Shown: piece after piece, positions 41,523 through 42,327 of the stretch
How the letters are laid out: each line of letters opens with the position of its first letter
Position numbering within the stretch: position 1 is the first letter of the stretch
Sequence record: PQ356294.1
DNA length: 64,000 bases
Source of the DNA: Escherichia phage Ec_YwIITB1
Strand: one strand, 5' to 3'
Translations under genes and position numbers: made by a program
The notes under the pieces: generated by a model
What the model was told of the DNA's origin: nothing
The model's input: the letters and a program-made list of their open reading frames with translations, nothing else
Databases searched by the model: none

Positions 41523-41562
41523 CTTATTTCCTGTTTTAATTCGTGGATTTAATATACTACTG

Positions 41563-41570
41563 TATTTATA
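41563..41570 (-). promoter_or_regulatory. late promoter TATAAATA
   Basis: Plus-strand tatttata about 40 nt upstream of the 41522 start. Confidence 0.55.
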
Positions 41571-41600
41571 CTAAAAAGCCCCAACCTTTCGGTCGGGGCT
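41571..41600 (-). terminator. intrinsic terminator, repeat copy 2 (10 bp stem, GAAA loop, U5)
   Basis: Minus strand AGCCCCGACC-GAAA-GGUUGGGGCU then UUUUU; terminates tRNA-cluster transcripts. Confidence 0.7.
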
Positions 41601-41652
41601 AAGCCTTGCGGCAACCTTGTCGGGGTTCCACCTGCTAAGGCAAGTGTTTGTA

Positions 41653-41743
41653 CGAAACGCCGGGATTTGAACCCGGTTATTAAGCAGTTGACGCTACTCA
41701 ATATTTTTAAAAGGCCATATCTCAACCATATCCGAACGTTCCG
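41653..41743 (-). ncRNA. tRNA-like structured RNA (candidate stable-RNA equivalent)
   Basis: 7 bp acceptor-like stem CGGAACG/CGUUUCG and a perfect T-arm CCGGG-UUCAAAU-CCCGG, but no canonical anticodon arm. Confidence 0.3.
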
Positions 41744-41916
41744 TCAAAAACGCTACTCGGCTTACAGCAAAAATATTTCCTCGAATCGATAATTCTGTGC
41801 GCCGTTTCAGCTGTGATGTAAGGGGACATTAACAGATCGTAAAGATTTGTTAATGCCAGTCCTTACCCAGGGAACATCAGTCCGACGACTTACCGGTAGC
41901 GACCCGGTTTCTTGTT

Positions 41917-41992
41917 TGGTCGAGGCAGTAGGGATCGAACCTACGACCTAGGACTTAGAAGGTCCTTGCTCTTCCTTCTGAGCTATGCCTCG
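41917..41992 (-). tRNA. tRNA-Arg (anticodon UCU)
   Basis: Manual cloverleaf: acceptor CGAGGCA/UGCCUCG, loop CUUCUAA, T-loop UUCGAUC, CCA encoded. Confidence 0.8.
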
Positions 41993-42047
41993 AACCCATG
42001 ACTACGAGAATCACAATCTCGAGTTCTACCAACTGAACTACGGCCAC
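41993..42047 (-). pseudogene. 3'-truncated tRNA-His-like gene (GUG anticodon arm intact) fused to the tRNA-Arg 5' end
   Basis: Acceptor 5' strand, D-arm and CGAGA-UUGUGAU-UCUCG anticodon arm present; T-arm 3' half and acceptor 3' strand absent. Confidence 0.5.
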
Positions 42048-42141
42048 ATTAATACCTACTCCAACAATCAAGATGTCTTCACACGAAATTAAGAGAAGAG
42101 TGATCAGTTCAACCCCTATAATCGCGTCAAGTAGATATTAA

Positions 42142-42157
42142 TGTGACAGTTGTCACA
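42142..42157. repeat. 16 bp near-perfect palindrome tgtgacagttgtcaca
   Basis: Inverted repeat between the tRNA-His remnant and tRNA-Asn. Confidence 0.5.
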
Positions 42158-42161
42158 AATT

Positions 42162-42236
42162 TGGCGGACGTGATAGGATTCGAACCTATAACCAATCGCT
42201 TAACAGGCGATCGCTCTGCCATTGAGCTACACATCC
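42162..42236 (-). tRNA. tRNA-Asn (anticodon GUU)
   Basis: Manual cloverleaf: acceptor GGAUGUG/CACGUCC, loop CUGUUAA, CCA encoded. Confidence 0.75.
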
Positions 42237-42240
42237 AAAT

Positions 42241-42327
42241 TGGTGGGGAGTGGTGGAGTCGAACCACCCGAGTCGCAATGACAATGGATTTACAGTCCAC
42301 ACCGCTACCTCTACGGGATAACTCCCC
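42241..42327 (-). tRNA. tRNA-Tyr (anticodon GUA), class II with long variable arm
   Basis: Manual cloverleaf: acceptor GGGGAGU/ACUCCCC, loop CUGUAAA, T-arm GGUGG-UUCGACU-CCACC, CCA encoded. Confidence 0.7.

Follow-up and report, generated by a model that had tools for sequence, protein, structure and literature searches.

A probable tRNA-His pseudogene formed by a 25-bp deletion beside tRNA-Arg in a Tequatrovirus genome

Introduction

In the tRNA cluster of Escherichia phage Ec_YwIITB1, a sequence resembling the 5′ part of tRNA-His runs straight into tRNA-Arg. Is it a working gene, an RNA element with some other role, or what is left of a gene that has been lost? We analyzed a 64,000-nt stretch of DNA from this phage (sequence record PQ356294.1), referred to here as the window. 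A first-pass annotation made from the sequence had described the 55 nt at 41993-42047 as a truncated tRNA-His half abutting tRNA-Arg, interpreted it as a deletion scar, and suggested that it could affect RNase P processing or act as a decoy.

The window is Tequatrovirus DNA (T4-like coliphage, Straboviridae); over the 12 kb around the His remnant, it shares 97% identity with phages such as UGKSEcP2 and pSs-1. A single tRNA cluster was found by ARAGORN, entirely on the minus strand and running from 42913 to 41917, with the order Gln, Leu, Gly, Pro, Ser, Thr, Met/Ile(CAU), Tyr, Asn, a gap, the His remnant and Arg. For these minus-strand genes, ‘upstream of tRNA-Arg’ means higher window coordinates. 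The features at the Arg end of the cluster, listed in the direction of transcription, are:

42162-42236, minus strand: tRNA-Asn(GUU), with an intact 27-bp preferred SegB site, GGTTCGAATCCTATCACGTCCGCCAAA, at 42186-42160 (ARAGORN and Rfam; site definition from PMC2330249)
42048-42161, minus strand: 114-nt structured spacer from tRNA-Asn to the His remnant (predicted fold; inverted repeat I1; same sequence in relatives)
41990-42047, minus strand: probable tRNA-His(GUG) pseudogene, nt 1-58 of 76 (3′-truncated Rfam match of 36.7 bits; 100% identity to the intact His of relatives)
41989-41990, minus strand: deletion junction TTCGA/GGCA (alignment to intact relatives; 25 nt missing, namely CTCCCATCGGTCACCCCA, ATTA and CGG)
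41917-41992, minus strand: tRNA-Arg(UCU), intact, with CCA encoded, 5′ end CGAGGCA and A3-U70 (ARAGORN, TCT; full-length Rfam match of 68.1 bits; 5′ end as in the T2 allele)
41796-41915, minus strand: homologue of rnaD (species 2 stable RNA), just 3′ of tRNA-Arg in a common transcription unit (103 of 121 positions identical to T4)
41651-41789, minus strand: homologue of rnaC (species 1 stable RNA; 135 of 139 positions identical to T4 rnaC)
41577-41600, minus strand: intrinsic-terminator-like hairpin and T run, 3′ of the rnaC homologue (10-bp stem with 7 G-C pairs, then TTTTT)

Results

A tRNA-His gene that ends in its T-loop

Scanned alone, 41993-42047 (minus strand) matches positions 1-53 of the 71 in the Rfam tRNA model (RF00005) with 36.7 bits and an E-value of 1.2e-6, and the match is flagged as cut at its 3′ end. 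The gathering threshold of this model is 29 bits. The remnant retains the acceptor 5′ strand GUGGCCG, the D-arm, the anticodon arm, the variable loop, the T-stem 5′ strand and T-loop U54-A58. Its anticodon arm is perfect (CGAGA-UUGUGAU-UCUCG), with GUG in a 7-nt loop closed by a 5-bp stem. The resemblance is not fortuitous: over its whole length, the remnant shows 100% identity to the 5′ part of an intact 76-nt tRNA-His carried by phages FriedrichZschokke and UGKSEcP2. The intact tRNA-His of a relative scores 65.1 bits with the same model.

The homology to tRNA-His extends 3 nt past 41993 to position 41990. These three bases, T-loop C56, G57 and A58, double as nucleotides 1-3 of tRNA-Arg. Because the homology reaches 41990, 58 nt of His have been kept and the remnant overlaps tRNA-Arg by 3 nt instead of merely abutting it. 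The first-pass description of a His-like half is therefore retained, with its extent corrected from 55 to 58 nt and its boundary moved into tRNA-Arg. As that description also held, the 3′ half of the T-arm and the acceptor 3′ strand are missing, which is borne out by the truncated Rfam match and by the identity to the relatives. His 59-76 is gone, leaving the acceptor stem and the T-stem without their second strands, and the remnant does not make up a complete cloverleaf. The discriminator base C73 and the 3′ CCA were lost with the deletion.

Position -1 of the remnant (42048) is T, as it is in all nine intact copies examined; the missing encoded G-1 is a trait of the phage tRNA-His family and was not caused by the deletion. 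G-1 is the main identity element of bacterial HisRS. In this phage tRNA-His family, T at -1 plus C73 was seen in 10 of 10 copies (the window; L001-L003 and L007-L012), none with an encoded G-1, and a literature search on phage tRNA-His without G-1 gave nothing relevant.

A single deletion relative to intact relatives

In FriedrichZschokke and UGKSEcP2, the intact 76-nt tRNA-His is followed by a 4-nt spacer, ATTA, and then by tRNA-Arg. Compared with these relatives, exactly 25 nt are absent from the window, namely CTCCCATCGGTCACCCCA-ATTA-CGG, which corresponds to His 59-76, the spacer and Arg 1-3. This gap is the sole indel in the alignment of 41560-42170. Aligning the locus to relatives with an intact tRNA-His was the check that the first-pass annotation had asked for, and the outcome favors its deletion scar: the relatives have the full gene and the 4-nt spacer, and the window is short by exactly the bases that separate the two arrangements. 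The comparison shows the ancestral arrangement to have been Asn, the 114-nt spacer, His (76 nt), ATTA and Arg. An intact orthologue is thus present at the same position in close relatives and the lesion is defined, as is looked for in a pseudogene formed by deletion. We conclude with high confidence that the remnant is a tRNA-His pseudogene that arose by one 25-bp deletion, private to this Tequatrovirus genome.

The spacer upstream of the remnant is itself structured. Together with the start of His (42037-42161, minus strand), its predicted fold reaches -40.6 kcal/mol (z -4.21), a stability matched by 0 of 200 shuffles. The fold includes a predicted helix of about 19 bp in which 42130-42153 pairs with 42037-42060, corresponding to inverted repeat I1 and including the first tRNA-His bases. 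The 114-nt spacer is identical in the relatives and could be an RNase III-type processing element or the remnant of a mobile cassette. Spacer and His are jointly missing from T2-type phages.

tRNA-Arg rebuilt from T-loop bases

ARAGORN predicts tRNA-Arg(TCT) at 41917-41992 (minus strand) with a length of 76 nt. Although the deletion took Arg 1-3, the length of the gene is unchanged, with His T-loop C56-G57-A58 now supplying these three nucleotides. The acceptor stem consists of 7 bp, all Watson-Crick (CGAGGCA with UGCCUCG, including A3-U70), and the Rfam score of 68.1 bits over model positions 1-71 exceeds the 63.9 bits of the relative's tRNA-Arg. The new 5′ end, CGAGGCA, is the natural one in T2, T2L, RB3, RB5 and RB6. 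In this T2-type arrangement, Asn is followed directly by AATA and then by Arg, and the T2 Asn-Arg junction recurs at 99% identity or more in 125 records. The window tRNA-Arg is one base apart from that of T2 (CCTAGG versus CCTGGG), a variant that is also present in UGKSEcP2 and L009.

Nucleotide -1 of tRNA-Arg is U, and U at this position is preferred by E. coli RNase P. In a fold prediction of the precursor of His remnant and Arg, the Arg acceptor stem forms with pair probabilities of 0.82-1.0, and the 3′ ACC is paired in the mutant and in the intact relative alike. The same folding missed the cloverleaves of the intact relative and so carries no weight for RNase P access. Judged from its sequence features, tRNA-Arg should be functional. 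The suggestion that the remnant affects RNase P processing finds no support in a tRNA-Arg that has a fully paired acceptor stem, a covariance score above that of its intact relative, and the natural 5′ end of T2, T2L and RB3.

Position 3 differs between the groups of phages. The tRNA-Arg(UCU) genes of His-bearing relatives (L001 568-643, L002 931-1006 and L003 932-1007) have a G3:U70 wobble pair, versus A3:U70 in T2-type phages and in the window. A G3:U70 pair is the hallmark determinant of AlaRS.

We infer that the cluster is still transcribed as one unit, with the hairpin at 41577-41600 probably marking the end of the tRNA/stable-RNA transcription unit. RNase P would be expected to cut at the Arg 5′ end, after U -1, and free mature tRNA-Arg, because the acceptor and T-arm of Arg are intact and -1 is U. 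The His stub would not be maturable, CCA-tailed or chargeable, since it has neither an acceptor helix nor a T-arm. It would stay, with the 114-nt spacer, in a tRNA-Asn trailer of roughly 170 nt and would probably be degraded. The phage would then be without a tRNA-His of its own and dependent on that of the host. This loss should be cheap, as tRNA-His is naturally absent from T4 and T2.

Origin of the deletion

T4 SegB has a 27-bp site composed of GGTTCRANTCC, a degenerate middle of about 11 nt and CCAR, and cuts just 3′ of CCAR (PMC2330249). The intact His gene of the relatives fits this pattern, reading GGTTCGACTCC-CATCGGTCACC-CCAA/TTACGG with an N11 middle and the predicted cut at the slash, and its spacing is that of the preferred Asn site. 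It differs from the preferred SegB site at three of the five positions singled out in PMC2330249. SegB cutting of this His gene is putative, as read from the match to the consensus. The deletion starts after GGTTCGA and ends 6 nt past the predicted cut. It thus runs across the cut point and takes 20 of the 27 bp of the site with it. In the window, GGTTCGA alone remains of the SegB consensus at His, which is no longer a target site. The consensus is kept in eight other tRNA genes of the window, the preferred Asn site included, and therefore the deletion confers no general resistance. A T-arm-like GGTTCAAATCC motif in the rnaC homologue, at 41673, also fits the SegB consensus core.

A tblastn search of the whole window with T4 SegB and its 11B_SA_NWU homologue found no SegB-like gene (E at least 0.18). 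No ORF lies between the His remnant and Arg or nearby, and Pfam searches of the neighboring ORFs returned nothing. The relative 11B_SA_NWU carries a gene for a 206-aa GIY-YIG protein inserted exactly at the boundary between the His CCA and the spacer. This protein has 51% identity to T4 SegB (E 9e-69), with a C-terminal block of about 32 residues identical, and has weak GIY-YIG matches in Pfam. In T4 and G10400 as well, segB lies directly upstream of Arg. There are at least five architectures beside tRNA-Arg:

Architecture 1: Asn, spacer, His, ATTA, Arg(G3); the commonest His-bearing arrangement
Architecture 2: as architecture 1, with a GIY-YIG gene at the boundary of His CCA and spacer; 11B_SA_NWU
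Architecture 3: Asn, AATA, Arg(A3); T2
Architecture 4: Ile, segB, Arg; T4 and G10400
Architecture 5: Asn, spacer, His remnant, Arg; the window

The SegB homologue of 11B_SA_NWU (L003 1011-1631) is rare, with one record at least 99% identical and five at 80-90%. The His gene of this phage has no encoded CCA (GGTCACC, then TTTTTT), so the CCAR cut signal is gone from its own copy.

These observations are consistent with a nuclease-induced deletion. A co-infecting relative may have delivered a SegB-family GIY-YIG endonuclease that cut both strands of the His gene after the CCAA of GGTTCGACTCC-N11-CCAA. If about 19 nt were then resected on the left and 6 nt on the right before the ends were joined, the observed 25-nt deletion would result. 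Relative to the G3 allele of Arg, microhomology at the junction is zero, and the junction therefore suits end joining. A break by a SegB-family nuclease with imprecise repair is a plausible origin on circumstantial grounds, and we propose it tentatively, as possible rather than probable.

Alternatively, the 25 nt may have been lost by spontaneous slippage or by microhomology joining on CGA, for which no nuclease is needed. This route supposes an ancestor with an A3 (T2-type) Arg, which would give a 3-nt CGA microhomology at the junction. However, an intact-His ancestor with A3 Arg is not present in the databases, where the best full-length matches all have the single G3 mismatch. As the A3 allele of Arg occurs only in the His-less T2-type arrangement and the best full-length matches are all G3, the blunt-join and microhomology routes are inseparable.

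Two other routes were considered and rejected. A crossover of His with the Asn T-arm of a T2-type phage predicts a His/Asn hybrid followed by CCAAATA-Arg, and the window sequence differs from this. An 11B-like allele that lost its resident endonuclease gene would end up with the same endpoints, but that allele has GGTTCAA versus GGTTCGA in the window, which is weak evidence against it.

An allele found in one genome

A 36-nt query across the junction had no match in 50,697 phage records and none in E. coli complete genomes, and a 29-nt junction pattern had no match in IMG/VR, JGI metagenomes or GTDB genomes. The uninterrupted His-spacer-Arg block is present in 185 phage records, counting those that cover at least 80% of the query, while a 62-nt junction query retrieves 382 records, divergent matches at 80-90% identity included. 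Nine other copies of this His gene were read (three from GenBank phages and six from IMG/VR), and all nine have an intact 3′ end. On the basis of these matches, the deletion appears private to one genome among the collections searched.

A junction seen in no other record of any collection, and known from the assembled sequence of one genome, raises the question of whether the 25 nt went missing in silico or while the library was being prepared, so that the real phage would have an intact His-ATTA-Arg. We consider such a sequencing, assembly or cloning artefact unlikely. A clean 25-nt loss without a further indel in about 600 aligned bases is atypical of platform error, and the flanks share at most 3 nt (CGA), which is far too short for assembler collapse. 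In addition, the product is a well-formed tRNA-Arg with the 5′ end of a natural allele, as expected of a viable phage under selection.

Possible functions of the stub

The stub could also be more than a remnant of the deletion, either as a leader that influences how RNase P processes tRNA-Arg or as a GUG stem-loop decoy for a host anticodon nuclease or tRNA-modifying enzyme. Its D-arm and anticodon arm are intact, and it lies inside the transcribed cluster, between the promoter-side tRNAs and the terminator. GUN-anticodon (queuosine) tRNAs are targets of colicin-E5-type anticodon nucleases, and Tyr, Asn and His belong to this set. Phage tRNA dosage is also known to counter a tRNA-cleaving defence (PMC13096335). 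However, a decoy role such as the first-pass annotation had raised would predict recurrence or conservation, and neither is seen: the allele is unique, its junction was found nowhere else in the collections searched, and no other His copy examined is truncated. As a decoy, a complete tRNA-His would serve at least as well, and no feature separates the stub from a neutral remnant. We therefore regard a functional stub as very unlikely. In its most specific form, the stub would be a stable RNA of at least 58 nt that serves as a decoy for a GUN-anticodon (Tyr, His, Asn, Asp) nuclease or tunes RNase P maturation of tRNA-Arg, with the allele being adaptive and not a product of decay, and this we find highly improbable.

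Compared with T4, this phage group has additional tRNAs, namely Tyr and Asn (42162-42327) and His (41990-42047), all on the minus strand, which represent three of the four GUN-anticodon tRNAs. These extra tRNAs fit with phage tRNAs countering tRNA-cleaving defences (PMC13096335).

ARAGORN additionally reports a 73-nt tRNA-His(gtg) at 41976-42048 (minus strand) that shares 17 nt with tRNA-Arg. The call is an artefact, a forced cloverleaf. Apart from this report, a functional tRNA-His overlapping tRNA-Arg by 17 nt, in the manner of overlapping mitochondrial tRNA genes, is extremely improbable: Rfam gives a 3′-truncated match only and no full-length His, the 73-nt stretch has no cloverleaf fold (MFE -18.5 kcal/mol, z -0.74), the would-be acceptor (GCUCAGA versus UGUGGCC) is mismatched at two of seven pairs, the would-be T-stem has 3 pairs, and the bases taken from Arg are those of its acceptor and D-arm. 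Annotation pipelines based on ARAGORN are likely to include this spurious tRNA-His overlapping tRNA-Arg and to overcount the tRNA repertoire accordingly.

Discussion

The allele is new but its type is familiar: a phage tRNA pseudogene, here in a gene that the phage can do without and at a site already known as a recombination hot spot. The lesion is private and neutral-looking. It offers a small, datable case of erosion in a T-even tRNA array, with one endpoint in the T-loop recognition motif of the SegB family and a lost segment that spans the insertion point of a relative's SegB-type gene. If the link to a nuclease is true, endonuclease attack would remove tRNA genes piecemeal too, besides swapping whole cassettes, and the survivors would be only those outcomes that keep the neighboring tRNA.

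The classical psu deletion mutants of the T4 tRNA cluster are viable; on laboratory hosts, phages can do without their tRNA genes, and deletions within the cluster arise readily. The psu deletions were selected in the laboratory and are mostly larger than 25 nt, and we know of none that rebuilt the 5′ end of a neighboring tRNA from T-loop bases. Overlapping mitochondrial tRNA genes resemble the window in that adjacent tRNAs share a few nucleotides, 3 nt in this case. In those overlaps, each of the two tRNAs works, editing or polyadenylation making up what the shorter one lacks, whereas the upstream partner in the window is dead and lacks 18 nt.

Among the closest counterparts are the tRNA regions of T-even phages (T4, T2L, RB1 and RB3; Brok-Volchanskaya et al. 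2008, PMC2330249), which share the locus and the gene order with the window. In those alleles, whole tRNA genes beside tRNA-Arg are present or absent, with boundaries at tRNA 3′ ends, the position of the SegB cut. segB or a homologue lies directly upstream of Arg in T4, G10400 and 11B_SA_NWU, whereas the window has no endonuclease gene. The alleles of PMC2330249 also differ from one another by whole genes or by a homing-endonuclease gene, while the endpoint in the window lies within a T-loop and leaves a 58-nt stub.

Another parallel is the tRNA-Tyr/segB segment of T6 (Chihara et al. 2026, PMC13096335), where SegB breaks in tRNA genes and short-homology repair reshape the array and leave truncated genes at the junctions. 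The T6 case is a tandem amplification that is selected by Septu immunity and depends on UvsX/UvsY; in contrast, the window has a small deletion with no evidence of selection. Decayed tRNA genes within clusters have also been recorded in T4-like phages (Nolan et al. 2006, PMC1524935). Those cases are tRNAscan ‘pseudo’ calls without a mutational history, whereas the tRNA-His remnant of the window can be traced to an exact lesion of 25 nt in a known intact ancestor.
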